DNA of 64,000 nt from an uncultured Acidobacteriota bacterium (GTDB taxonomy: Bacteria > Acidobacteriota > Vicinamibacteria > Vicinamibacterales > UBA2999): positions 324,773 through 388,772 of the forward strand of contig CAWEAM010000010.1 in the NCBI GenBank assembly GCA_963807105.1, in the 5' to 3' direction. Position numbers and translations under genes: made by a program. How positions within the stretch are numbered: the first letter of the stretch is position 1; each line of letters opens with the position of its first letter. A model generated the notes under the pieces. The model saw only the letters and a list, made by a program, of their open reading frames with translations, did no database searches and was not told where the DNA came from. Shown one piece after another: positions 1-15,027 of this stretch.

Positions 1-536
1 GTCACGGTCGCGCACATCAACCTGATCGGCCTCGACGCACTCTCGCGCGAGCTCGGCGAGGACCGCGCGATGAGCCTGCTCAGCGATGTCGTCGGCGGGC
101 TCGATGAGGCCGCGGAGCAGCACGGCGTCGAGAAAGTGCGGACGATCGGCGCTTCGTATCTGGCCGCGTCAGGCCTCTCGCTGGAGCGGCCCGACCATAC
201 TGCGCGCATGGTCGAGTTCGCGCGTGAGGTCGTTCGCATCGTCCGTCGATTCAACGCGGAGCGACGGACGAACCTTGGCGCCCAGATCCGCATCAACGCC
301 GGCCCGGTGATTGGCGGCCTGATCGGGCGGCGCAAATTCATCTACGACCTCTGGGGCGACACTGTCCGCCTGGCGCGCCGCATCGAGTCCGACGGACAGG
401 GGTCCATCGTGGTCACCGAAACCGGTGTACGAGCGGGTACACGAGCTGGTGCCTTTCGGAATGCCGACGCAGATCGAGGTGCAGGGGATCGGTACCTGTC
501 GAGCTGTACCCGGTGCTGGAGGAGGGGATCGCATGA
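1..536 (+). CDS. Class III adenylate/guanylate cyclase-like domain, 5'-partial, two frameshifts (~421, ~497); catalytic residues degenerate
   Basis: Frame from base 1 reads VTVAHINLIGLD...GVEKVRTIGASYLAASG...INAGPVIGGLIGRRKFIYDLWGDTVRLARRIES, continues in other frames as VYERVHELVPF...IEVQGIG and VELYPVLEEGIA*; the TGA at 534-536 overlaps the ATG of the next gene. Confidence 0.8.
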
Positions 537-1987
537 ACGACCTCCTCGGCTTCCTGCGCCAAGAGGGCGTCTGGGCGGTCGCGCTCGCGGTGGGCCTGCC
601 GCTCGCGCTCATCCTCGCGACCGAATTGGGCTTCGCGCTCGCCCGCCGGCGGCATCCCGCAACGGTCTGGATACGGCGGACGCGCATCTGGGTGCTGCCT
701 CCGATCGCCGCCGTCCTCTACCTCCGCGTCGTCCTGGGGTTGTCCGACGACAACGGTTGGGTGCGCCTCGCCGCGACGGCCACCTGGGTCGCGATCGTGA
801 TCGTCGCACTGGGCGCTGCCAATTCTTTGGTATTCGAGGCGGCCGCCGTCGGCAGCTGGCAGCAGCGCGTGCCGCGGTTGCTGCGCGATCTGGTCCGGAC
901 CCTCCTCGTCGCGTTCGCGGCGGCGCTGGCCTACTCGTTCATCTGGGACCGCGAGATCCAGGGGGCGCTGGCCGCGCTCGGTGTCACTTCCATTGTCGTC
1001 GGGCTGGCGCTGCAGGAGCCCCTCGGGAATCTCTTCTCGGGGCTCATGCTTCTCATGGAGCGACCCTTCGAGATCGGCGACACGATTGAGGTCGGCGGCG
1101 TCTCCGGGAAGGTGAAGGAAATCAACTGGCGATCGGCCCACATCGAAGCACTGGGGGGCATGATCCAGGTCGTTCCGAACTCGACACTCAACAAGGAAAC
1201 GATCAGCAATTACTCGCGGCCGTTACCGGTGCGCATGGAGATGCTGGAGCTCGCCTTCAGCGCTGACGATCCGCCAAACAAGGTGTGCGAGGCGCTGCTC
1301 GATGTGGCCAGGACCACCAAGGGCGTGCTCCAGTCGCCGAAGCCGATCGCTGCGACCATCGGGTACGGCAACCACGCGGTCAACTACCGCCTGATCTGGC
1401 GCGTGGCCGAAGAGGATCGGTGGTCGGTGCGCAATGACCTGATCACCCGCATCTGGTACATGGCGCGGCGCCACGAGCTGACCATGCCCTATCCGGTGAA
1501 CGTGAACATCCAACATGTGACCAAGGCCCCTTTCACGAAGGCCGCCGCCTCTCCGGCCGAGACTCTGGCGGAAATCCCTCACCTGCCACGCGTGCCCGTC
1601 GAGCAGGGCGGCGTCCGGGTGCTCGCGTTTGGCAAGGGCGAAGTGATCTTCGACGAGGGGCAACTGCTCGACGGTGTCTATCTGCTGGTGACGGGCGCGG
1701 TCTCGATGCAGCTGGTGCGTGAAGGCGAAGTCGCGGAGATCGCAGCGGTCGGGCGGGGCGAGTTCTTCGGTGAGGCCGGCATGCACGGAACGCAGACGGC
1801 AGATTCCCGGGCCGTTGCCGTCGACGACACCCAGCTCCTGCTGCTTGAACCAGACACCGTGCGACTGTTATTCGAGGCGAGCCCGACGCTCGCTCGCGAC
1901 ACCGGGCGGGTGCTCGACGTCAGGCGCAAGGCGCTGCAATCGGCTCGCAGTGCGTTGCGCCGCCAACCACGGGTGAGCAAGCGATGA
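533..1987 (+). CDS. MscS-family mechanosensitive channel with C-terminal cyclic-nucleotide-binding domain
   Basis: TM helices, GLALQEPLGNLFSG, ERPFEIGDTI, INWRSAHI, VPNS; C-terminal GEVIFDEG...GEFFGE; start MNDLL at the ATGA overlap. Confidence 0.9.
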   Translation: MNDLLGFLRQEGVWAVALAVGLPLALILATELGFALARRRHPATVWIRRTRIWVLPPIAAVLYLRVVLGLSDDNGWVRLAATATWVAIVIVALGAANSLVFEAAAVGSWQQRVPRLLRDLVRTLLVAFAAALAYSFIWDREIQGALAALGVTSIVVGLALQEPLGNLFSGLMLLMERPFEIGDTIEVGGVSGKVKEINWRSAHIEALGGMIQVVPNSTLNKETISNYSRPLPVRMEMLELAFSADDPPNKVCEALLDVARTTKGVLQSPKPIAATIGYGNHAVNYRLIWRVAEEDRWSVRNDLITRIWYMARRHELTMPYPVNVNIQHVTKAPFTKAAASPAETLAEIPHLPRVPVEQGGVRVLAFGKGEVIFDEGQLLDGVYLLVTGAVSMQLVREGEVAEIAAVGRGEFFGEAGMHGTQTADSRAVAVDDTQLLLLEPDTVRLLFEASPTLARDTGRVLDVRRKALQSARSALRRQPRVSKR

Positions 1988-2114
1988 AATCGATGTGGGC
2001 GTAACCCTCGCGGCGTGATTCTCGAACGCGGCGCCACTCGCGCTCGCGGCTCCGCGCAGCACACGATGGCATCCCAAGGCACGGTCGTATTCTCTACGGC
2101 GATCCCCCAAATGC

Positions 2115-2250
2115 CACGGCATATTGGACGCCCTCCGGCAGGCTGGGCGAGCGGCGCCTGTGATTCTCGCAACTGGCGGCGCGACCTCGTCAAATCTCCA
2201 ATGAAAACGGGTCGCTTCGGTCTTCTTCGCGCACCGGCACGCGGTCTGCA
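2115..2250 (+). promoter_or_regulatory. sigma54-type promoter module copy 1 (upstream box + CAATGAA box + -24/-12)
   Basis: CACGGCATATTGGACGCCCTCCG (2115), CAATGAA (2199), CGGCACGCGGTCTGCA (2235-2250, GG-N10-GC). Confidence 0.7.
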
Positions 2251-2326
2251 AGGTCGGGCCCCGCCGAGGAGTTTGGCGCATTGCCGTCGAACGACGATCA
2301 GCGGTCATTCGGCGGGTTACCAATCC

Positions 2327-3052
2327 ATGGAACTACTACGTCGACGCCTTCTACTGCTTGCCGAGAGGACGAGCTGGGCATTCGGCCTTGCCGGTCTCGT
2401 GTGGTGGGGGGCGTTCCACATCGGGGTCGCCAGTTCGATGCGGCACGACCTGGAGCGCTTCGCGGCGCTTCAGGGTATCGCGACGCCGGCCGGTACGCCG
2501 GACCAGTCCCTCTGGTCTCCAAATCGCGTCAGTGCCTGGCGTAACGCGCTGAGCGAACCGGCCCCCGATCCGCTTGCGGTGCTCCGAATCCCGAAGATTC
2601 GACTCGAGGTCGCAGTCCTGCCTGGCACCGCCGACGCCACGCTCGACCGCGGCGTCGGTCACATCGAGGACACGGCACAACCGGGAACGGACGGGAACGC
2701 GGGCATCGCCGGGCATCGGGACGGCTTCTTCCGCGGACTGAAGGACATCACCCCGGGCGACACGATCGAGCTCGACACGCTCCAGGGGAAGGACGTCTAT
2801 CGTGTCGAGCGAACGTGGGTGGTCGACCCGGAGGATGTCTCGGTGCTGGACCCGACGCCCACGCGGGCGCTGACGCTGGTCACTTGCTATCCCTTCTACT
2901 TCGTCGGCTCCGCCCCGCAGCGATTCATCGTCCGTGCCGTGCGTGTCGGCGGCGAAATCGCAGACCGCGCCGTGATCCACTGCACGCGTCGCGTGTCCGT
3001 CGTGCGCAAGCTGGCCGTTCGCCGCGGTGGTCTGGCCTTCTCACGTCTCTAA
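2327..3052 (+). CDS. Class D sortase
   Basis: N-terminal TM; LRIPKI, GVGHI, GNAGIAGHRDGFF, LTLVTCYPFYFVGSAPQRFIVRA give the His/Cys/Arg triad. Confidence 0.92.
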   Translation: MELLRRRLLLLAERTSWAFGLAGLVWWGAFHIGVASSMRHDLERFAALQGIATPAGTPDQSLWSPNRVSAWRNALSEPAPDPLAVLRIPKIRLEVAVLPGTADATLDRGVGHIEDTAQPGTDGNAGIAGHRDGFFRGLKDITPGDTIELDTLQGKDVYRVERTWVVDPEDVSVLDPTPTRALTLVTCYPFYFVGSAPQRFIVRAVRVGGEIADRAVIHCTRRVSVVRKLAVRRGGLAFSRL

Positions 3053-3093
3053 ATGGTTCGCGAAGACACGCAGAGCAGAATGGAGAGAGTTTT

Positions 3094-3852
3094 ATGACAC
3101 GTGCAATCGTTCGGATGGTGCTCGTCACGGCAGTCGTGTGTTCGACGGCCGTCGTGTCGCTGGCGCAGACCACGAGCTCGACGGAAACCAAGACATTCGA
3201 AGTACTCGCGGTGGACGGCAACCAGCTCGTCGTCAGGCTGCCGGAAGGCACGAGGGAGCTGACGGTCGCCGATGACTTTCGCTTCACTGTCAACGGACAG
3301 CAGTTGTCCGTGCGCGACTTGAGGCCCGGTATGAAAGGCACGGCCACCATTACGACGCGAACGACGGTCACGCCGGTCACCGTCACCGAGGTGAAGAACG
3401 GCACGGTCGCGCACTCGGCTGGTGCCACCATCATCGTACGGACCGACGAGGGATTCCGGTCGTTCACTCAAGGGGATATCGACAAGCGCGGCGTGAAAAT
3501 CATGCGCGCCGGCAAGCCCGCGCAGGTGTCAGATTTCCGTGAAGGTGATCGGCTGACCGCAACCATCATCACGTCCAAGCCGCCGCAGGTCCTGACCGAA
3601 AAGGAAGTGCAGGCTACCCTCGCGGGTGCGGGTGGAACAGGCGGCGGCGCCCGTCCGGCGGCAGCAGCGGCCCCTTCGGCCTCTTCGGCACCTGCGTCCG
3701 CCGCGGCACCTGCGGGCTCGGCCGCAACGTCGGCGGGCGCGACCAGAGCACTGCCGAAGACCGCCAGCTCGTGGCCGGTGCTCGGGCTCGCGAGCGTCCT
3801 GTTCCTCGCGATGGCGCTCGCCCTGACTACCAGGCGCCGCTTCGTCCGCTAG
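3094..3852 (+). CDS. Sortase substrate: signal peptide, two OB-fold-like beta repeats, Ala/Pro linker, LPKTA sorting signal
   Basis: C-terminus ALPKTASSWPVLGLASVLFLAMALALTTRRRFVR = LPXTA + TM + basic tail; directly follows the sortase. Confidence 0.88.
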   Translation: MTRAIVRMVLVTAVVCSTAVVSLAQTTSSTETKTFEVLAVDGNQLVVRLPEGTRELTVADDFRFTVNGQQLSVRDLRPGMKGTATITTRTTVTPVTVTEVKNGTVAHSAGATIIVRTDEGFRSFTQGDIDKRGVKIMRAGKPAQVSDFREGDRLTATIITSKPPQVLTEKEVQATLAGAGGTGGGARPAAAAAPSASSAPASAAAPAGSAATSAGATRALPKTASSWPVLGLASVLFLAMALALTTRRRFVR

Positions 3853-3869
3853 TCAATCTGCTATCAGCT

Positions 3870-3902
3870 GGCCGCGCTCGCGCGCGACGCCCGAGCGCGG
3901 CC
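3870..3902 (+). terminator. GC-rich hairpin after the sortase-substrate gene
   Basis: GGCCGCGCTCG...CGAGCGCGGCC inverted repeat; no clear U tract. Confidence 0.4.
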
Positions 3903-3972
3903 CGCCTATCTGTCACCGCCTCATCCCTGCGCTGTCTCTCGCGGATCGCAAGCTGCGGCCCTGCCTGGTCCC

Positions 3973-4071
3973 TACGGTATTCCGGAACCCCTCCGCCACG
4001 TCGGACGAACCATGTCGGCGGGCGAGCGCCGCATGTGAACGCCCCGCGGAGTTTCCCCAATGAATCAGGCC
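3973..4071 (+). promoter_or_regulatory. Promoter module copy 2 (upstream box + CAATGAA box; no correctly spaced -24/-12)
   Basis: TACGGTATTCCGGAACCCCTCCG (3973) and CAATGAATCAGGCC (4058), same ~85-nt spacing as the other copies. Confidence 0.55.
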
Positions 4072-4147
4072 GGTGCACGTTGCACGCCGCCTGAACTCAG
4101 AAAATCGGACACCATTGGATTACTCCGATCCAGCAAAGGAGTGCGCC

Positions 4148-4874
4148 GTGTTCATTAAGCTCGCTGCAGAGTCGATCGGCACGTTCTGGCTCGTTCTCGG
4201 AGGTTGCGGCAGCGCGGTACTCGCGGCCGCCTTCCCCGACGTTGGAATCGGATTGCTCGGGGTGTCACTGGCTTTCGGTCTGACGGTGCTCTCAGGGGCG
4301 TACGCGCTCGGCCCGATCTCGGGCGGTCACTTCAACCCCGCTGTCTCCGTCGGCTTGTGGGCGGGAGGCCGCTTTCCCGCCGGCCTGCTGTTGCCTTACA
4401 ACCATGGCGCAAGTCTTCGGTGGCGTCGTCGGCGCGGGCGTGCTGTACTTCATCGCCAGCGGCCGCGCCGATTTCAGCCTCGCCGGAGGCTTCGCTTCTA
4501 ACGGCTACGGCGTGCACTCACCCGGCAGGTATTCGCTTGCGGCGGGGTTCGTGTGCGAAGTCGTGATGACATTCATGTTCCTGGTCGTCATTCTCGGCAC
4601 CACTCACAAACGCGCGCCAGTGGGATTCGCCGGCCTCGCAATCGGCCTTGCACTCCCACTGATCCATCTGATCAGCATTCCTGTGACCAACACCTCGGTC
4701 AATCCGGCGCGCAGCATCGCCACCGCGCTGTTCGCTGGAGACTGGGCGCTTCAGCAGCTCTGGCTGTTCTGGCTTGCTCCGATGATTGGCGCCGCCAGCG
4801 CGGGCGTGACATACAGGGCGATCCTCGAAGGCGCAGTCGTTGAACCTCCGGTGACCGGACGCGCCGCTGCGTAG
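4148..4874 (+). CDS. aqpZ: Aquaporin Z, frameshift near 4400
   Basis: [57 protein letters not shown]; split over ORFs 4073-4501 and 4404-4874. Confidence 0.92.
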
Positions 4875-4994
4875 TTCACTCTCGAGGTGGCCAGCTCATC
4901 GCCGTGTTTGAGAGAGCCCGCGGTCAGGTTCTCGATCGCTGTTTTTCCGTAGGTTCCGCGGATGCCCCGCCCTCCGGTTGCCCCGGCCGATACG

Positions 4995-5131
4995 CACGGT
5001 ATTTCGGGCGCCCTCCGTGGAATTGGGGAGATCTGCGCGGCGGTTCGGGTGGCGAGCCGCAGCCACGTCGTGAGATCCTCAATGAATCCGGCCATTTCTG
5101 GTTTTTTCTCCTCCACGGCACGCGCTCTGCA
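4995..5131 (+). promoter_or_regulatory. sigma54-type promoter module copy 3
   Basis: CACGGTATTTCGGGCGCCCTCCG (4995), CAATGAATCCGGCC (5080), CGGCACGCGCTCTGCA (5116-5131). Confidence 0.72.
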
Positions 5132-5473
5132 GCCGGCTTGTCCGCCTGTCACTCCTCGTCGAGAAGTTCCAGACGCGCGACCGGAGTAGTCAGTGTCCGA
5201 CTGACCAGTTGGAGTGATATGGCTCGGTTGGTTGGAAAGCGGAACGCGGTTCACGGCGCAAGTAGATGAAATCGCGGATGCCGTCGCAGCCGGCGGGCGT
5301 GGTCAGCAACATGGCCTCGATCACCCGTCGTGCGTCGCCGACAGCCGCATCGTTTTGACTGCCGCACCGTTTTGACTGGCCGAGTGCGGTCGCAATGTGC
5401 TTGGATAGCATCCGGTCGGTGGCGCGCTTTAGAGAGTAACGGCTCTTCGCGATCGCGGCCCTAGGAGGACACA

Positions 5474-6025
5474 ATGAAACGGCTTGTTGTGGGAATGATT
5501 GCAGTGGCGTTTCTGGCATTGACGGCCCGCACGGCCGTGGCTCAGTCCAAGACCATCTCGTCTGAGATGCGAACGGAAACGGGTGTCGTCGAAGCGATCG
5601 AAGCCTCGACACGCTCGGTGACGCTCAAGAAACCGGACGGAACCTTCGTGACGACGGTCGCGGGGCCGGAGGTGAAGCGTTTCTCGGAGATCAAGGTCGG
5701 CGACAAGATCACCGCTCGCTACTACGAGAACCTCATTATTCGGCTGAAGCGGCCCGGCGAGCCGGACGTGGTCAGCCAGACGAAAGGCACGACCCCTTCC
5801 GAGCAAGTTCTCCCGGGTGGCACGAAAGCCAAGCAGGTGACCATCACGGCCACGATTGCGGCCATAGACATGAACGTGCCATCGGTGACTTTCACCGGGC
5901 CGAACGGCTGGAAGTACACCTCCAAAGTGGTGGACAAGGAGGCGCTCGGCAAAGTGAAGGTCGGCGACAAGTTCGACATCGTCTGGACCGAAGCGATGCT
6001 GGTGTCGCTCGAGCCCGGCAAGTAG
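5474..6025 (+). CDS. Exported protein with tandem OB-fold-like repeats
   Basis: AGGAGG RBS, signal peptide, two repeats (GVVEAIEASTRSVTLKKPDG...IKVGDKI; ATIAAIDMNVPSVTFTGPNG...VKVGDKF). Confidence 0.85.
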   Translation: MKRLVVGMIAVAFLALTARTAVAQSKTISSEMRTETGVVEAIEASTRSVTLKKPDGTFVTTVAGPEVKRFSEIKVGDKITARYYENLIIRLKRPGEPDVVSQTKGTTPSEQVLPGGTKAKQVTITATIAAIDMNVPSVTFTGPNGWKYTSKVVDKEALGKVKVGDKFDIVWTEAMLVSLEPGK

Positions 6026-6040
6026 GTGACTGGGTTACAG

Positions 6041-6068
6041 CCGGGACGATCCGCCGTGATCGTCCCGG
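6041..6068. terminator. Hairpin between convergent genes
   Basis: CCGGGACGATC...GATCGTCCCGG. Confidence 0.45.
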
Positions 6069-6133
6069 ACCGCCGCCAATGATCGGAGGTGGCGCCGCGC
6101 GTGATGAGCACTTGATGACTCGAGCCTGAGACG

Positions 6134-6830
6134 TCAGTCTGACGGCGTCAGCGCTGCAGACGCCATTCCATCGAAGAAGTCTCTGAGCGGCCAATTGGTG
6201 GCGGCAACGCGAGCGCCACCGAGAATGAACGCCTCCTGCCGGAGCACGAAACGCAAGGCTTCCAGCATCTGGCCAACGCCCGGCGGAGGGCTGCTCAACA
6301 TTTCTTCAGTGACGCCGAAAGCGGATCGGTGGGCCGCAAGCGCCGACAGCTTGCGGTCCAGTAGATGTATCGCATCGAACGACACCGCGAGCATGCCGGC
6401 TGCGGTGCCAAAAACGTCCGGGTCGAGCCCGTCAGTGATGCCTTTGCCTCGACTCTTCTCCGCGAAGACCCGAAACACATCGCGCTCGATGGTGCAGTAG
6501 AACAACCGCTCGGGCGCCGTCGGCCCCATCACACCACTCGAAAAGAACGCCGCGGCCGTGGCGCGCTGAATCGCCAGGTGGTCGGGATGGTAATAGCCGC
6601 CATGCGGATCGAACGTGACAATCACGTGCGGCGTCCTCTCCTGAATGATGTCTCGAATGGCCGCTTCTACTTCGAGCTTGTCGATATTCGCCAGCGCTCG
6701 CGGGTCGTCATGTCGTTGCCGATCCTTGCGGGCAGAATCGTGGAATCCGAGAAGCACGGGTTCTTCGATGCCGAGCCTGGCGCAGGACATGCGCAATTCC
6801 TCCGCGTATTTTGCGGCGCGGACGATCCGC
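6134..6830 (-). pseudogene. PIG-L/MshB-family deacetylase, N-terminus missing
   Basis: EELRMSCARLGI, LGFHDS, TFDPHGGYYHPDH, KLSALAAHRS; no AHPDDE N-terminal motif. Confidence 0.72.
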
Positions 6831-7350
6831 GGCGAGCTGCATGTCAGAGAGCTGGAAGGCGGTGCCGACACGACGCTCGGTGGAGATCTCGGCGCCAATC
6901 GCGGCTTTCCGGTGATCTCCCCAAATGGGAAGCAGATCGCCTTCGGACGCTCGTGCCGGGACCGCCCGTGCAGCGTCCTCTGTTTCTCACGAACCTCGCT
7001 GATGGAGAAACGCGCTTGGTGCGCGACGACTGTGGTGGCCGCCCGCGGCAATGGCTCGATGAACAGACGCTGCTCGTCGAAACGTTCGGCGCGGGGCTGA
7101 ACTCCTTTGTGGTGGTCGAGACGTGTGACGGAACGCAGCGTCCGCTGCTCTCATCGATTGATCGCCGGGTCTCCAATCCCCGTGTCTCACCAGACGGCCA
7201 CTGGCTCGCGTTCGACGCCGTGCACCCCGGCGGATCGCCGGTGGTGGCGGTCGCGCGATGATCACCAACGTCGCGCCCATTGCCGCGCCTGATCAGATCA
7301 TCTTCGTGCTGGGCGACTATCGGGGTGATGTCTGGATGATGGATGTTTGA
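6830..7350 (+). pseudogene. C-terminal PD40/TolB-like propeller fragment (kinase/regulator type)
   Basis: PVISPNGKQIAF, NPRVSPDGHWLAF, then IIFVLGDYRGDVWMMDV*; no start or N-terminal domain. Confidence 0.6.
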
Positions 7351-7446
7351 GAAGTGTCCGCGCGCCGAGCACGCCCTCCCTCCCCTCGAACCAGTCTCTG
7401 CGGCGCGTCTACTCCATGAGCCGCAAAGGGTAGAACGACGGCCTGA

Positions 7447-7476
7447 TTGACATGTGACCATATGGTCACATATAAT
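7447..7476 (+). promoter_or_regulatory. sigma70 promoter with ArsR operator palindrome in the spacer
   Basis: TTGACA (7447), 18 nt, TATAAT (7471); perfect 20-bp palindrome ATGTGACCATATGGTCACAT at 7452-7471. Confidence 0.85.
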
Positions 7477-7482
7477 CGATCA

Positions 7483-7827
7483 GTGTTCGACGACGATTCG
7501 GTGTTCAAGGCGCTCGCGGATCCAACACGTCGATTCCTTCTCGATCTGCTCTTCAAACGTGACGGTCGCACGCTGACGGAGCTCGAGTCGGAGTTGGCGA
7601 TGACGCGGTTCGGTGTCATGAAGCACCTGCGCGTGCTCGAGCGTGCGGGCGTCGTCGTCACGCGCAGGTCGGGCAGGGAGAAGCTGCACTTCCTGAACCC
7701 GGTGCCGATCCGAATGATTCACGATCGCTGGATCGACAAATACACTGGGCGTCGCGTGTCGGCGCTGTTGGATCTCAAAACCGAGTTGGAGGCGAAGTCA
7801 TGGCGACAGAGTCAAAAGCGGGCATAG
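7483..7827 (+). CDS. ArsR/SmtB-family regulator, probably leaderless
   Basis: VFKALADPTRRFLLDLL, MTRFGVMKHLRVLE, HFLNPVPI. Confidence 0.9.
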   Translation: MFDDDSVFKALADPTRRFLLDLLFKRDGRTLTELESELAMTRFGVMKHLRVLERAGVVVTRRSGREKLHFLNPVPIRMIHDRWIDKYTGRRVSALLDLKTELEAKSWRQSQKRA

Positions 7828-8297
7828 CGACGACGCAGGTCTACGAGGTCTACATCAAAGCCTCGCCACAGGCCATCTGGGACGCCCTCACGTCGCCGGA
7901 ATGGACGACGAAGTACGGCTACCAGGGCGCCGTCGAGTACGAGCTACGTTCGGGCGGCGCGTACCGGGCGCACTCTACTTCGCAGATGAAGTCGTTTGGC
8001 TTGCCGGACGTCGTCGTCGACGGCGTGGTCGAGGAAGCCGACCCGCCGAAAAAGCTGGTGCACACCTATCGCTTCCTGTTCAGCGACGCCATGAAAGCCG
8101 AGGGCTTCACGCGCGTCACGTGGGAGATCGAGAAAGTCGCAGCCGGCTTCTCGAGGCTCACCGTGACTCACGAGCTCGAGGGCGCGCCGATCATGGCCGG
8201 CATGGTCGCCAGTAAGTTCTCCGAGCAGGGCACGGGTGGCTGGGCCTGGATTCTCAGCGACATGAAGTCGCTGCTCGAGACCGGCAACTCGATGTAA
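7800..8297 (+). CDS. SRPBCC/AHSA1-like protein
   Basis: QVYEVYIKASPQAIWDALT...GWAWILSDMKSLLETG; usual ArsR partner. Confidence 0.88.
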   Translation: MATESKAGIATTQVYEVYIKASPQAIWDALTSPEWTTKYGYQGAVEYELRSGGAYRAHSTSQMKSFGLPDVVVDGVVEEADPPKKLVHTYRFLFSDAMKAEGFTRVTWEIEKVAAGFSRLTVTHELEGAPIMAGMVASKFSEQGTGGWAWILSDMKSLLETGNSM

Positions 8298-8431
8298 GAC
8301 CGGAGTTCAATGGAACGAGGAGCGCGGATCGCTGACGAGGCACTCGAGTACCGCCCGGCCTCGCGGCATTAGGCGGTAGCCGACCTCGAGGCTGGGCGGT
8401 CCGCGCAGGCAACCCTTGTCTTGCCTGACAC

Positions 8432-8568
8432 TACGGTATTTCGGGCGCGCCCTCCGGGAGGGTGGGGTGATCCGCGCCGCCCTTCGCCGGGCACACCTGC
8501 GGTGCGTCGCCAGATCCTCAATGAATCCGGCCATTTCTGCTTTCCGCTCTCACGGCACGCGGTCTGCA
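8432..8568 (+). promoter_or_regulatory. sigma54-type promoter module copy 4
   Basis: TACGGTATTTCGGGCGCGCCCTCCG (8432), CAATGAATCCGGCC (8519), CGGCACGCGGTCTGCA (8553-8568). Confidence 0.72.
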
Positions 8569-8770
8569 GCCCACCTGCCCAACTGTCACCGAACGGCGAG
8601 GAATTCGGAGACGCGCGACCTGCGCGTCAGTCGTCGACTTCACTGTTGTTGAGTGACATTGGATCGGTTCGTCGGAAAACGAAATGCCCTTCATGGGCTC
8701 GCAATGTGCATCGCGTCACCGGCGCGCTGAGAGCAAAACTTTTCGCGATCGCGGCACTAGGAGTGCACAC

Positions 8771-8855
8771 GAGACGACGTTCTCGTATTAGCCAGCGGTG
8801 ATCTTGCGATCGTCGTGAAAGTGCCGTCCGGTTTCTTGAGCGTGACCGTGACCAT
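8771..8855 (-). pseudogene. Inverted remnant of a paralog of the 5474-6025 gene
   Basis: Minus strand reads VTLKKPDGTFTT then KITAG*YENVV, versus VTLKKPDGTFVTT and KITARYYENLII. Confidence 0.7.
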
Positions 8856-8882
8856 CACGGGACGATTACGAGGAACGAATCC

Positions 8883-10674
8883 ATGCAAAACGGCATCGCG
8901 CAATGGATGGCCAACCGAGCGCGGGGGCTTCTCGCGGCTGCGTTAGTAGCCGCGACGTTTATCTCGCGGGCTGATGCTTGGGCGCAGCCTGCGCCCACGC
9001 CCGGAGCCTCGACGCGGCCGAACATCGACTGCGGCGCGGCCGTGGGCGATCGGAACACCTGCGATGCCGATACTTCGTCCGGCGTCGTGTTGGTCCGGCA
9101 GGCCGGCGAGGGTAACTGCGTGCTCGGCAAAACCTGGGGCTTCGAGGCGAAGGCGGTCTGGGTCGCCGATGGATGTCGTGGCACGTTCGCGTTCACCGAC
9201 GATCGTCTGACCGTGACCTGCGCGGCTGCTGCAGGCGCACGCGAGGTCTGCGAGGCGAACACCGCCGCTGGCGTTGCGCTCGTCAAGGGCTCGCCCGCGT
9301 GCATGTTGGGTCGGACCTGGGGCTACGACCGGGATGGCATCTGGGTGTCGGACGGCTGCCAGGGGACGTTCGTCCTCACCACCCGCGGCGCGCTGGAATG
9401 CGGGTCGAATGGTGCGCGTCAACACTGCGACGCCGACACGTCCGCCGGCGTCGTGCTGGCGCGCTCGACCGCCACGGCGGCGTGTGTGCTGGGCGACTCT
9501 TGGGGCTATGACGCCACCGGCGTCTGGGTTGACAAGGGCTGTCGTGCCGAGTTCGTGCTGGGCAATTCAGAGCCTGGCGGTCCGGAAAACCAGGACCTCG
9601 ACGCTTTCTTCGGACTGCTCGAACCATACGGCCGGCTGCGCGGCCACGTTGCCTGGTTCAACGACGAAATCGAAGTGCAGGACGACGCCTCGTTCCTCGG
9701 TCTGAACTTTTCGACCCGCGGCGCGACGAAGTTCTTCGCAGCGACCGAGTGGGGTGTACAGCCTCGTACGCGGCGGACAGGTGTTCAACGCAGGCGGGAC
9801 CACCAGCGGCGGCGGCTTTCCAACGCTGGACGATCCGCAGGCGGACCAGGTGTTCAGTGCCAGGCTCGGCTACGTCGGCGTCGACTTCGGGCCGTTCGGG
9901 CGCATTGCCGCCGGCAAGCAGTATGCGGTTCACACCGATGTGACCTTGTACACAACAGACCAATTCACCGTGTTCGGCAGTCAGGCCAGCGCGACATACA
10001 CAGCGGGCACCGACGGCGGCTTCCTGGGCAGCGGCCGCGCCGACCAGACGCTGACGTATCGCAACACGCTCTTCAACGTGCTCCGGCTCGGCGGCCAGTT
10101 GCAGTTCAGGACCGCCGACAACAGCGAGACGATCGATGGGGCAGGCGTGTCCGCACAGTTGACCGTCCTGCCAGGGGTCCGCTTCGGTGCGGCCTACACA
10201 AAGAGCTATTTCGACGACGAGGTCGCGGCCCGCATTCGCGGGCTCGGCGACGATGCCGAGTTCATTGCGCTTGGCGCCAGCATCAACTGGAAGATGTTCC
10301 AGGCCGCCGTCGTCTATGCCGAACAGAACAACGGCGACCTCGCGCGCCTTGAATTGCCGGGCAATGTCGTCGAAGCGGTTGCCTTCGACGCCGACGGCTT
10401 TGAAGCGCTGTTGCGCGTCAACGTCCGGGGATTCACCGTCTACGGTGGGCTCAACTACTACCGGCCCGACGTCGTCGATCCAATCCTCAATCCCGACTTC
10501 CGAACGAGATATGCCATTGGTGGTCTGAACGTCGGGATCTTGCCGAACATGTACGCCTACGCGGAAGCACGCCTCTTCGACGACAGCGTGGGCCCGCAGG
10601 GTGAGGAAGGGTTCGATGTCCTTGCCATCGGTGTGCATTACGGCTTCAGCGTCAAGGGGTTCCATCGCCGGTAG
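8883..10674 (+). CDS. DUF3011-repeat / porin fusion, frameshift near 9755
   Basis: Signal peptide, three Cys-rich repeats (CDADTS.GV.L....C.LG.TWG....VWV.DGC..TF), then Gram-negative porin (RLGYVG, GRIAAGKQY, GSGRAD, IGVHYGF). Confidence 0.8.
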
Positions 10675-10749
10675 AAATTCCCGCTCGTCTGCAATCGGCT
10701 CGATCTGAAAAGCGCCCAACGAGCCGGAGTTAGTGATCGGTGGCGCGAC

Positions 10750-12022
10750 ATGGAGTTTGCTGTGTTGAATCTCTTCCAACCCACACTGTTCACGCTTCTG
10801 TTCCTGGTTCTGTCAGCTACCTTTGCGAGCGCGCAGCAAGTTGAGGTGGGCCGCGAACAGATCACGCTTCGGGGAACCGTGGAGGCCGTCGACCCCGCGG
10901 CCCGGACGGCCAGAATCCGCGGGGATAAAGGGATCGTCGTCACGGTCGACATTCCGCAGTCGGTCGTCCATCGACCAACTCAAAGTCAGCCGACGTCGTG
11001 AGCCTGTCGTACTACGACGTGGTCACCGTCCGCCCGAAAGCTCCTGGCGAGCCCGCCGTTGACCGGATCGATCCTCCGACCACGACGGCGACGGCCGGCG
11101 CTCTGCCCGGCGCCACGCTGGCGTCGAGCGCGTGTCAACGGTCACCATCACCGGCTGGGACCCTAAAATGCGAACGGTGACGTTCACGGGCCCCGGGGGT
11201 ACCAGTTACACTCGTCGTCTGCTGGATACGACCGACTCGGCCATCCTCGCGGCGCTGAAGGTTGGCGATCGCGTGGACGTGACGCGCACCGAAGCCGTTC
11301 GCTTCGCGGTCGAATCGCGCACGGCGGCGGCGCAAGTGGATCCGACCGACTCATTTCGCCATCGAGTCACGATCTCGGCAGTTTGGGGATGGGACAATCA
11401 GTTCAGCGGCAACATGATTCAGGAGGCCACGGGGCGAACGGCCACTGGCCTGCCGATCAACTTGAACGAGACGACCTACGACGACGTGTACGGCCGGATG
11501 GCGATGTTCAAGATTGGCGTCGGCTACCGCACGACGCCCCGCACCGAAGCAGTGGTCAACTTCGTCATCTCGCGGAGCTCGTCCGAGACCGCGAACATCG
11601 GCACCGTGTCCAACACCCCGCTGTTCGTGGACTTCGATGACTACAACTACTGGGGGTTCGAAGCCGGCCAGCGGTTCTTCTTCACCCGCGTCCGTTTCAC
11701 GCCCTATGTGGGTTACCTGTTGGGCCTCAACCGGTACGACGACATCAGAGGCACCTTCGTCGATGTCCCCCTGAATGTGACGCCAGGCCTCGCAGCGCAA
11801 GACGGCAAGTTCTTCGAGAAGTCCTGGGCGTTCAGCCTCGGCCCCACCGGCGGCGTGCTCATCGGCGTGGGGCCCTTCGAGGTGATGGCGGAGACGCAGC
11901 TGCGCTTCATGGGCGGCCTGTCGGATGTCGACTGGCTCGTCGAGGAGGGCCTGCGCGACATCAACAGCGAGAGCTCGCGCTGGTCGTTTCCAGTTCAGCT
12001 CGGCGCCAGGATTCGGTTCTGA
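10750..12022 (+). CDS. Tandem OB-fold-like domain fused to outer-membrane beta-barrel, frameshifted (~10970-11135)
   Basis: GTVEAVDPAARTARIRG, LSYYDVVTVRPKAPGEP, VTITGWDPKMRTVTFTGPGG, LKVGDRV, then amphipathic strands ending GARIRF. Confidence 0.75.
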
Positions 12023-12108
12023 TGACCTCCGAGCACGAGGCGCGGCAAAATCTCCATGCTGCGCCTCGTGTGTCGCACAACGACGACCTGAATGTGTTGC
12101 CGGTTCGA

Positions 12109-12879
12109 TCAGCGGCGCCGTTTTGCGCTCACAGACAATCCGAATAGATTGATGTTCACCATTCCTGGAAGGACCCGCTCATCCTGAACGCCATGAAGGT
12201 TTGTTCTAGCAATGTTGAAGTGGAGACTGACCTGCTTCTTGATCAACGGAGACACAAAGTCGCAGATCCGATAGCCGAAACCGACGGTGGTTGCCGGCTT
12301 CCAGTCGTGACCCCCCTGCCCGTCAGGAAGCATCACCAGCATGACGCCTATCGCGGGCATCGTGAATCGTCCGACCTCGAAAACTCCGATCTGCATCCCG
12401 ACGATGCCGTAGGTCGGCGTTGCTGGATATCGTGCCTGCATCCACAATCCAGTCAGATGAACTCGTTGAAAAAACGAGCTCTTCACGACTTTGTCGTTGA
12501 CATTGCCGCCCGACGTCGCCAGCGATGAACGCCGGCGTTGGAGAATAAGTAAAGGCTGGTCGTCCCAGTGGCGGAGAATGTAGCAGGCGCTCGCGATCAG
12601 TTCATCGACTCCCGCATAACCCTGACATTCCGCCTCGAGCCAAGCGGGCGGTTCGGGACGCTTCTTGCGTTCCCAGATCGGCTGATCGTTGAAGTTACGC
12701 GCGACCCTGTTCCCCCACTGCTCAAACCACTTCTCCCACGCGTGGTACTCTCTGAGCCACTTTGCAAGCTCGTCAAACCTTTGCTCGGCCTCCGACCCTC
12801 CCATCAACCCCTGCTCTTGAGCCACAGTAGGAGCTGCGCTCGCCACCAGGGCCAGCCCAACAAACACCGCGATCTTCAT
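12109..12879 (-). CDS. Exported hypothetical protein (helical N-half, beta-rich C-half)
   Basis: GGAGG RBS, MKIAVFVGLALVASAAPTVA signal peptide; open frame. Confidence 0.7.
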   Translation of the reverse strand: MKIAVFVGLALVASAAPTVAQEQGLMGGSEAEQRFDELAKWLREYHAWEKWFEQWGNRVARNFNDQPIWERKKRPEPPAWLEAECQGYAGVDELIASACYILRHWDDQPLLILQRRRSSLATSGGNVNDKVVKSSFFQRVHLTGLWMQARYPATPTYGIVGMQIGVFEVGRFTMPAIGVMLVMLPDGQGGHDWKPATTVGFGYRICDFVSPLIKKQVSLHFNIARTNLHGVQDERVLPGMVNINLFGLSVSAKRRR

Positions 12880-13297
12880 GAACCCTCCAGAAGGGATCCC
12901 GCTGCCACCGACTGTGAATCTGCGTTCCGTGGCGTCTTCGCCGGAATATCCACTCCGAAGTCGGCAGGCGATTCCGCCCGCCAAATCTTACGGATGAGCT
13001 TTAATTGCAGATCCTGCACCGCCTTTCAAGCGAAGTAAAGAATTTCGTCGGCAGCGTGTCTGGCGCGAAGCCGTGATGCACAAGGCTGCGCGCGGTGACG
13101 CGAAAATTCACACGGGAATGATTCACTGCGAATGAGGCACCGGTGCTGCAGCCGCAGCGGTAGTAGTGCGTCTCACTTTCCGTGCGCTCGTGGGTCACGC
13201 GCACGCCGCAGTAGGGCAATTGAGTCGGAGTGGGCCGTGCACGCCCCTATGATCGGCATGAGGCGGTGGGCTGCCAAGTCGGGGGTTTTCGGACTAG

Positions 13298-15027
<1,730 letters not shown>

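Follow-up and report, generated by a model that had tools for sequence, protein, structure and literature searches.

A 35-bp tandem-palindrome element as the likely enhancer of a dispersed, probably fermentative sigma54 regulon in an uncultured member of the Vicinamibacterales

A stretch of 64,000 nucleotides (nt) from an uncultured Acidobacteriota bacterium of the order Vicinamibacterales (assembly GCA_963807105.1, contig CAWEAM010000010.1, forward-strand positions 324,773 to 388,772; hereafter the window) carries four copies of a promoter module, in which a GC-rich sequence, box A, is followed by a short CAATGAA sequence, box B, and then by a GG-N10-GC sequence of the sigma54 -24/-12 type. 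Our comparisons indicate that box A belongs to a 35-bp element that is likely to be the enhancer of a clade of FhlA-like activators with a PAS(-GAF)-AAA+-helix-turn-helix (HTH) architecture, and that the window is likely to be an outpost of a genome-wide, probably low-oxygen fermentative regulon. We place the probability of this reading at roughly 75%. By extension from established sigma54 biology, two activator dimers would bind the two palindromes of the element, and the bound activators would oligomerise, loop to the sigma54-RNA polymerase and open the promoter with ATP. Since the element is symmetric, a single copy might serve both directions. Fermentation, energy and cell-envelope genes would in this way be induced jointly by the activators, probably at low oxygen.

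A pattern search of the window confirmed box A at 2115, 3973, 4995 and 8432, CAATGAA at 2199, 4058, 5080 and 8519 (84, 85, 85 and 87 nt after the start of box A), and the motif CGGCACGCG(G/C)TCTGCA at 2235, 5116 and 8553, with its GG 37, 37 and 35 nt after box B. The strict patterns for box A and for boxes A and B together occurred at only these four places in the whole 8.0-Mb assembly, and the strict -24/-12 pattern at only the three, while box B alone was frequent, with 299 matches genome-wide. All four copies are intergenic and lie on the same strand as the next gene. Box A as first written was too short, the element running 12 nt further 3′. The complete element is symmetric, CTCCG-N6-CGGAG-N3-CTCCG-N6-CGGAG, and consists of two tandem palindromes, the first spacer usually being centred on AT; the first-pass annotation had seen one and a half palindromes. 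Within the spacers the letters are free and the lengths fixed. From established sigma54 biology (PMC7057263), such a layout would be expected for two cooperating activator dimers. The extended 35-bp pattern found three matches in the window against 0.00 expected (0 of 100 shuffles reached three) and missed copy 4, because the central spacer of that copy is 5 nt and not 3 nt long.

The earlier proposal of sigma54 promoters with an upstream enhancer was borne out for copies 1, 3 and 4, each of which has an intact GG-N10-GC box upstream of a same-strand gene; the centre of the palindromic element lies 92-106 nt before the GG in the window copies. As that proposal also demands, the genome carries rpoN (PF04552, 221 bits, C13:994642). 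Copy 2, upstream of aqpZ, has a degenerate -24/-12 sequence at 4080-4094 that was absent from the earlier list, with TG for GG and GA for GC, and control of aqpZ through this copy is thus doubtful in the present assembly. Judged on sequence, the modules of copies 1 and 3 appear wholly intact; the enhancer spacer is altered in copy 4, and the core promoter damaged in copy 2. The short enhancer-promoter spacing of copy 2 is the same as in the aqpZ promoters of two relatives, G342 (L061), where the promoter is intact, and G199 (L069), where the -12 position reads GA. Copy 2 is therefore a real member of this promoter family that has either decayed or been mis-assembled.

The element and its promoter recur in related genomes. 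Of 401 genomes of the order that were searched, 113 contained homologues of the 183-amino-acid (aa) protein encoded downstream of copy 3. Among the 29 best-scoring loci of relatives, a sigma54-like box lay upstream in 25 and box A as well in 22 (23 sites), and the boxes were far better conserved than the linkers between them. A scan of all species genomes of GTDB for exact box A followed by a -24/-12 box 72-102 nt later returned 49 loci, of which 46 were labelled Acidobacteriota or Vicinamibacterales, two lay on a single contig labelled Bifidobacteriaceae and one was labelled Oscillospiraceae. Three overlapping loci were dropped, as was the Oscillospiraceae match, which has no regulon gene nearby, and 48 sites were kept; homologues of the reference genes lay within 7 kb of 46 of them. 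The GTDB records and our numbered genomes of relatives stem from collections of one kind and do not count as independent sources. In the sites from other genomes a GG of the second palindrome at 28-29 nt from the pattern start, for which no selection had been made, was present in 48/48 and 46/48 cases. The element was detected in 80 of 401 genomes of the order and the reversed pattern in none. A spread outside the order was rejected, as 8 of 183 genomes of the same phylum had single matches and 3 had matches to the control. On the contig labelled Bifidobacteriaceae (L098, L113), the element and sigma54 boxes occur together with activator genes and with the OB-fold/sortase cluster, at 62-82% identity; this is probably a mis-binned acidobacterial contig.

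When all loci were taken together with a wide window, 127 of 132 element-promoter pairs were 58-126 nt apart, and the distances peaked at 68-69, 80-83, 90-94, 101-107 and 113-116 nt, with a best period of 11.5. This stepped spacing suggests helical phasing, in a set that includes kin and homologous promoters and comes in part from a limited-gap scan. In one relative (G082; L035 and L130) the element lies only ~40 nt from the -24 box and box B is lacking, corresponding to a 77-nt deletion, and this shortened module may be non-functional.

A weight matrix (PWM) was trained on 43 distinct sites from other genomes, with none from this one. Applied to this genome it gave 23 rows, both strands counted, and recovered the four window sites together with sites on contigs C13 and C5. 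Examination of 14 distinct sites in both directions revealed a sigma54 box scoring at least 7.8 at 12 of them, and a weak one at C13:159824; a random 57-nt window scores above 8 in 1.3% of draws. Beyond the window, the element precedes a sigma54 box at eight further places on C13 and C5 (Table 1), so that the regulon is not local as had been supposed. Nor was an envelope and water-flux programme supported, since its targets include fermentation, glycogen, ATP-synthase and PPK2 genes. The same targets recurred among 58 further sites from relatives, where 32 of 95 candidate open reading frames were scanned and additionally yielded a molybdopterin oxidoreductase, an Orn/Lys/Arg decarboxylase, a HAD-transaldolase, SulP, an MFS transporter, DUF1269 and DUF2254. 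Behind pfl in this genome lie units of a multiheme cytochrome c and an MtrB/PioB porin (L263:3576-8559; C13:177.6-182.6 kb), and in relatives such units stand directly behind element-linked promoters (L221, L236, L243). It is possible that extracellular electron transfer is under the same control. An IS630-like DDE_3 transposase (L261:10514-11602, on C13 of this genome) lies beside the HAD/transaldolase genes of the glycogen cluster.

The window holds no activator gene, as noted before: the genome has 47 PF00158 matches and about 35-40 enhancer-binding proteins, and the sole PF00158-type match on the window contig lies ~12 kb before the window. The claim of one unknown activator survives in part, because a shared type of activator fits the data and a strong candidate for it can now be named on C13. 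Four paralogous enhancer-binding proteins at C13:137.7-157.7 kb formed one clade (SH-aLRT 100) in a quick tree of 30 of the 38 listed proteins, the eight left out being short or frameshifted, and the paralogues have one recognition helix in common. The AAA+ domain (PF00158) is found in all four and HTH_8 in three; three carry an N-terminal PAS domain, accompanied in two of these by a Pfam GAF domain, and one has no sensor. The best NCBIfam matches were FhlA and NifA, far below cut-off, and the FhlA equivalog model gave 370.6 and 355.9 bits against a cut-off of 830. Two tandem, nearly identical paralogues at L073:6461-9675 (C13:154.5-157.7 kb) have the loop sequence GAYTDA, and the second of them lacks a sensor domain; clade members without a sensor are common in relatives.

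Both position and distribution link the element to this clade. Element sites lie directly before, after or between clade genes, here and in relatives. In other genomes, 20-kb regions centred on the activators contained sites in 13 of 15 cases, including 7 of the 9 from genomes without a match to the first pattern; the rate of PWM sites across the present genome is 0.057 per 20 kb. The HTH tail of the clade was detected in 118 of 401 genomes of the order, namely in 75 of the 80 with the element versus 43 of the 321 without it. The element was present in 56 of the 63 genomes with the strongest clade matches, and the clade in all 24 genomes with a verified full module. A second FhlA-like clade (C7:19189) was rejected as the activator; in 80 genomes hand-picked by element and clade status it occurred in 5 of 40 element-positive versus 3 of 40 element-negative genomes and did not track the element. 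The NtrX-like regulator before the window (C10:312058-313407) was likewise rejected, having no element nearby.

Regarding the signal, the closest PDB matches of the activator PAS domain were the heme sensors FixL and DosP (1d06, 1drm, 9bgv), with a His aligned in some paralogues. In our estimate, a low-oxygen or redox signal perceived through a FixL/DosP-like PAS falls a little short of an even chance. Anoxia is favoured by the genes for pyruvate formate-lyase (Pfl) and its activase, acetate fermentation, glycogen breakdown and multiheme cytochromes; Pfl is oxygen-sensitive. A more ambitious version is speculative and rather unlikely as a whole. It proposes that the system is the master switch for anoxia in a large order of acidobacteria, most of them uncultured. 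A single 35-bp enhancer would be common to several paralogous one-component activators, of which some have a heme-PAS oxygen sensor and others no sensor, and which might act as mixed hexamers. Under their joint control would stand glycogen mobilisation, fermentation through Pfl/Pta/Ack, a second F1F0 ATPase, cytochromes of the extracellular-electron-transfer type and envelope proteins of unknown function, sigma54 doing the job of FNR, FixLJ or DosR. Four proteins with a Crp/Fnr-type HTH score over cut-off, and the genome may therefore have other oxygen regulators.

Several observations weigh against the reading of the element as enhancer of this clade in a low-oxygen regulon, and the first of them concern the signal. 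The FixL-ligand His is kept in 9 of 22 clade PAS domains, being missing in 13, and in one of three in this genome. Moreover, aqpZ, MscS, the decarboxylase, F1F0, the OB-fold protein, DUF3300/DUF2950 and the sortase fit acid or osmotic stress equally well. The same promoters and activator might accordingly serve an acid, osmotic or envelope-stress programme, sensed through the GAF domain or through a PAS ligand other than heme, for example formate or a different metabolite. The targets include channels (aqpZ, MscS), porins, the sortase pair, HlyD/OEP efflux, a decarboxylase of amino acids and the F1F0 operon, and the nearest named family, FhlA, is a formate sensor tied to pH homeostasis (PMC4987338); we regard this as a serious minority possibility. 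Against it stand pfl and the radical-SAM activase of its product, pta/ackA, the breakdown of glycogen and the multiheme cytochrome-MtrB units, all of which point to anoxia. The two readings overlap, because fermentation acidifies.

The remaining adverse points concern the element, its promoters and its binding protein. No sigma54 partner box was found at C13:276765, and six other PWM matches above 11 that had no such partner were set aside. The membership of distal genes such as pfl in their operons is deduced from gene order only. The GAFTGA loop is present in two of the four paralogues and reads GAYTDA in the other two. No site was detected in 2 of the 15 activator-centred 20-kb regions. Five of the 80 element-positive genomes (G043, G275, G329, G356 and G410) had no clade match, and G043 is 99% complete and contains a full module. 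Conversely, families f2 and f7 had clade matches in 7/22 and 5/22 genomes and the element in 0/22 each. Finally, the co-occurrence of element and clade is inflated because the genomes are related and the genes clustered, and its P-values were given no weight. The case of G043 and this inflation would also fit a real enhancer that is bound by another protein, for instance a repressor or the NtrX-like regulator that lies ~12 kb upstream of the window, with the PAS-GAF clade as a co-inherited member of the cluster; among the 35-40 enhancer-binding proteins of the genome there would be other candidates. We consider this improbable, since only the PAS-GAF clade tracks the element while the control clade does not, sites abut clade genes in many genomes, and the paralogues are uniform in their recognition helix. 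The NtrX-like protein has a receiver domain and a kinase of its own, and no element match lies near it.

Part of the similarity between the window copies does reflect descent. The linkers of copies 1, 3 and 4 are homologous (alignment scores of 4-32 versus about -20 for shuffles), and the fixed spacing of the three boxes in the window is partly due to this. Copy 4 is, by its sequence, a duplicate of the copy 3 promoter and leader with a broken spacer, sharing 72.7% identity over 267 nt with 4996-5256 and 75.8% over 66 nt with 5408-5473, and an inverted gene remnant lies behind it; its 5-nt spacer is either a mutation or an assembly error. Box B, too, is confined to one promoter family. Local duplication of a single promoter region, with no wider regulon behind it, is nevertheless very improbable. 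It is contradicted as a full account by the element and sigma54 box standing, with unrelated linkers, before unrelated operons on other contigs and in many families of the order, and by the far better conservation of boxes than linkers. In this genome the linkers of two C13 promoters aligned with the window linkers no better than shuffles did, so the pairing of element and box is not just duplication and spans unrelated promoters. Duplication does account for box B and for the constant spacing of the window copies. The alternative of a mobile, REP/MITE-like repeat or a structured RNA in place of a promoter, at which the palindromes and the duplication and inversion scars of copy 4 might hint, has a negligible chance, the copies being few, intergenic and paired with GG-N10-GC boxes that point into genes, with spacers of free letters and fixed length, and an Rfam search of 1-14000 giving three weak matches, none over a module or near the gathering score.

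A three-box module with fixed spacing had been taken as the signature of these promoters. This does not extend to the wider set, where the distances vary in steps as described above and a box B-like sequence is found in 26 of 127 element-promoter pairs, mostly in the OB-fold/sortase/aqpZ promoter family. Box B as a general feature of the sigma54 promoters of this genome was rejected, as among 268 candidate boxes only the three window promoters scored on box B and the -24/-12 box together. Where present, box B is better conserved than its flanks. The core consensus of IHF sites is WATCAR-N4-TTR. The 13-mer starting from the 3′ end of box B scored at least 7/9 against it in 13 of 26 promoters, in one register 22-26 nt before the GG (7/9 in copies 3 and 4, 6/9 in copy 1). 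The mean score was 6.81 versus 6.26 for shuffled sequences, in a set whose sequences are homologous to one another. One gene for the IHF beta subunit scored over cut-off in the genome and none for the alpha subunit. Whether box B and the following 13 nt constitute an IHF site is close to a toss-up, tilting slightly towards no.

The promoter mechanism is textbook, and the regulon is wider and more metabolic than first thought. PMC7057263 describes the canonical sigma54 promoter with an upstream activating sequence and IHF-assisted looping, and the modules resemble it in their -24/-12 box, an enhancer ~100-150 bp upstream, an AAA+ GAFTGA activator and a possible IHF site in between. The sensor-less paralogues of the clade recall PspF and HrpRS. 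Unlike in the canonical case, the enhancer here is a GC-rich tandem pair of CCG-N6-CGG palindromes with a 19-bp period, a single site appears to be common to several paralogous activators, and the regulon is large and dispersed. As to enterobacterial FhlA, it was the best or second-best NCBIfam match of the activators, and shares with them the nature of a GAF-containing one-component activator and a link to formate and fermentation (pfl here) and to pH homeostasis (PMC4987338). The present proteins differ in their N-terminal PAS, and their targets are not hyc, hyp or fdhF. The FhlA enhancer is described there as a 16-bp AT-rich palindrome, unlike the 35-bp element; with this different enhancer and scores below the family cut-off, the regulon is not the FhlA regulon. 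A resemblance of box A to the FhlA site was entertained and dropped because the element is a tandem CCG-N6-CGG pair. In Desulfovibrio, the enhancer-binding proteins DVU2275 and DVU2827 are predicted to drive pfl operons from sigma54 promoters, which parallels the predicted control of pfl here; according to PMC4641369, those regulons are local and limited to one operon, the DVU2275 site is AT-rich, and the phylum is another. FixL and DosP provide the closest solved structures for the PAS domain, which here is fused to GAF-AAA+-HTH and not to a kinase or phosphodiesterase. No description of the motif, the activator clade or the regulon was found in the literature searched, whose coverage mostly excludes subscription journals.

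The order is known almost exclusively through metagenome assemblies. For a regulon that comprises at least a dozen of its promoters, these results provide an exactly described cis-element together with a candidate activator, each of them open to tests in a heterologous host. They also tie uncharacterised families (DUF3300, DUF2950, DUF3302, DUF4136, DUF502, DUF3011, the OB-fold protein and the sortase pair) to fermentation and energy genes, and so place these families in a physiological setting that can be tested. Should the PAS domain turn out to sense oxygen through heme, O2 would be linked directly to sigma54, a connection of which the literature searched holds no description.

Table 1. Features of the promoter modules and neighbouring genes in the window, and paired element-promoter sites elsewhere in the genome (C13 and C5, contigs; for these the position is that of the site and the genes are those that it precedes).
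Feature	Position	Strand	Evidence
Copy 1 enhancer, two tandem CCG-N6-CGG palindromes (earlier box A = first 24 nt)	2114..2148	+	PWM 28.3
Copy 1 box B, AT-rich, possible 5′ part of IHF site	2192..2206	+	
Copy 1 sigma54 -24/-12 box, GG 2236-37, GC 2248-49; predicted start ~2261	2235..2249	+	score 20.4
Sortase, class D-like	2327..3052	+	PF04203
Likely sortase substrate: signal peptide, C-terminal LPKTA, hydrophobic segment, basic tail	3094..3852	+	sequence
Copy 2 enhancer, top-scoring site of genome	3972..4006	+	PWM 40.2
Copy 2 box B core	4058..4064	+	
Copy 2 degenerate -24/-12 (TG for GG, GA for GC)	4080..4094	+	score 8.9
aqpZ-like MIP channel, two frames in this assembly, break near 4390-4404	4148..4874	+	PF00230 on both pieces
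Copy 3 enhancer	4994..5028	+	PWM 37.7
Copy 3 box B	5073..5087	+	
Copy 3 sigma54 -24/-12 box; predicted start ~5142, 332-nt leader	5116..5130	+	score 18.6
Secreted 183-aa protein, CusF-like OB-fold by language-model neighbours (lead only)	5474..6025	+	
Copy 4 enhancer, central spacer 5 nt instead of 3 nt	8431..8467	+	PWM 12.7
Paralogous copy of copy 3 promoter and leader down to ribosome-binding site	8433..8769	+	
Copy 4 box B	8512..8526	+	
Copy 4 sigma54 -24/-12 box; predicted start ~8579	8553..8567	+	score 20.0
Inverted, internally deleted remnant of OB-fold gene paralogue	8776..8848	-	85-90% to 5616-5661 and 5704-5734
DUF3011 repeats then porin domain, two frames in this assembly	8883..10674	+	
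OB-fold-like/outer-membrane protein, several frames; possible further gene of copy 4 unit	10750..12022	+	
Glycogen phosphorylase-isoamylase-phosphoglucomutase (glgP-isoamylase-pgm)	C13:8187		paired site upstream
Outer-membrane barrel	C13:124287		paired site upstream
F1F0 operon on one side; small secreted protein and activator 1 on the other	C13:136951		paired site
Small gene and PPK2	C13:139718		paired site upstream
DUF3300 and partner	C13:146520		paired site upstream
HlyD/OEP efflux unit	C13:154452		paired site upstream
Serine dehydratase, pta, ackA, pfl, pfl activase, then multiheme cytochrome and MtrB/PioB porin	C13:169811		paired site upstream
Ysc84/SYLF protein with DUF502	C5:352406		paired site upstream

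Among the window genes, the sortase passed the generic sortase model and stayed below the NCBIfam class D cut-offs (134.8 versus 140 and 128.1 versus 165), and its likely substrate had no Pfam or NCBIfam match. The pair of sortase and LPKTA-tailed secreted protein (2327-3852) stays together in this two-membrane bacterium and in many relatives; no description of such a pair in two-membrane bacteria was found in the literature searched. A leader of ~330 nt after copy 3 (5142-5473) is partly kept in copy 4 (8579-8769) and in some relatives. In relatives, DUF3011 genes have a sigma54 box of their own linked to an element (L204, L231, L241), and the DUF3011 gene is therefore a regulon member that here stands behind a borrowed promoter. 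Homologues of the protein at 10750..12022 also accompany the cluster in relatives. Genes split by frameshifts, at 4390-4404, ~9750, 10990-11180 and ~420-530 of the window and in several activator genes elsewhere, suggest that the assembly contains indel errors. Of the sequencing runs listed, three were DNA runs, with shares of 0.05-0.06, and none was an RNA run, which is evidence neither way.

Directly upstream of copy 1, positions 1-1987 and ~1.6 kb before them encode an adenylate/guanylate cyclase and then an MscS channel with a cyclic-nucleotide-binding domain, and MscS-type genes recur near element sites in relatives. Positions 6134-7260 hold a PIG-L deacetylase on the minus strand and, on the plus strand, an apparent fragmentary TolB-type repeat, judged by eye, both unrelated to the regulon. 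A sigma70 scan of 1900-9000 returned one site only, unrelated to the modules: a perfect consensus at 7447-7476 (12/12, 18-nt spacer) whose spacer is an 18-nt palindrome. Behind it, the plus-strand genes at 7483-8297 encode an ArsR-family regulator and an AHSA1/SRPBCC protein, and this pair, inserted between copies 3 and 4, is likely to be autorepressed.

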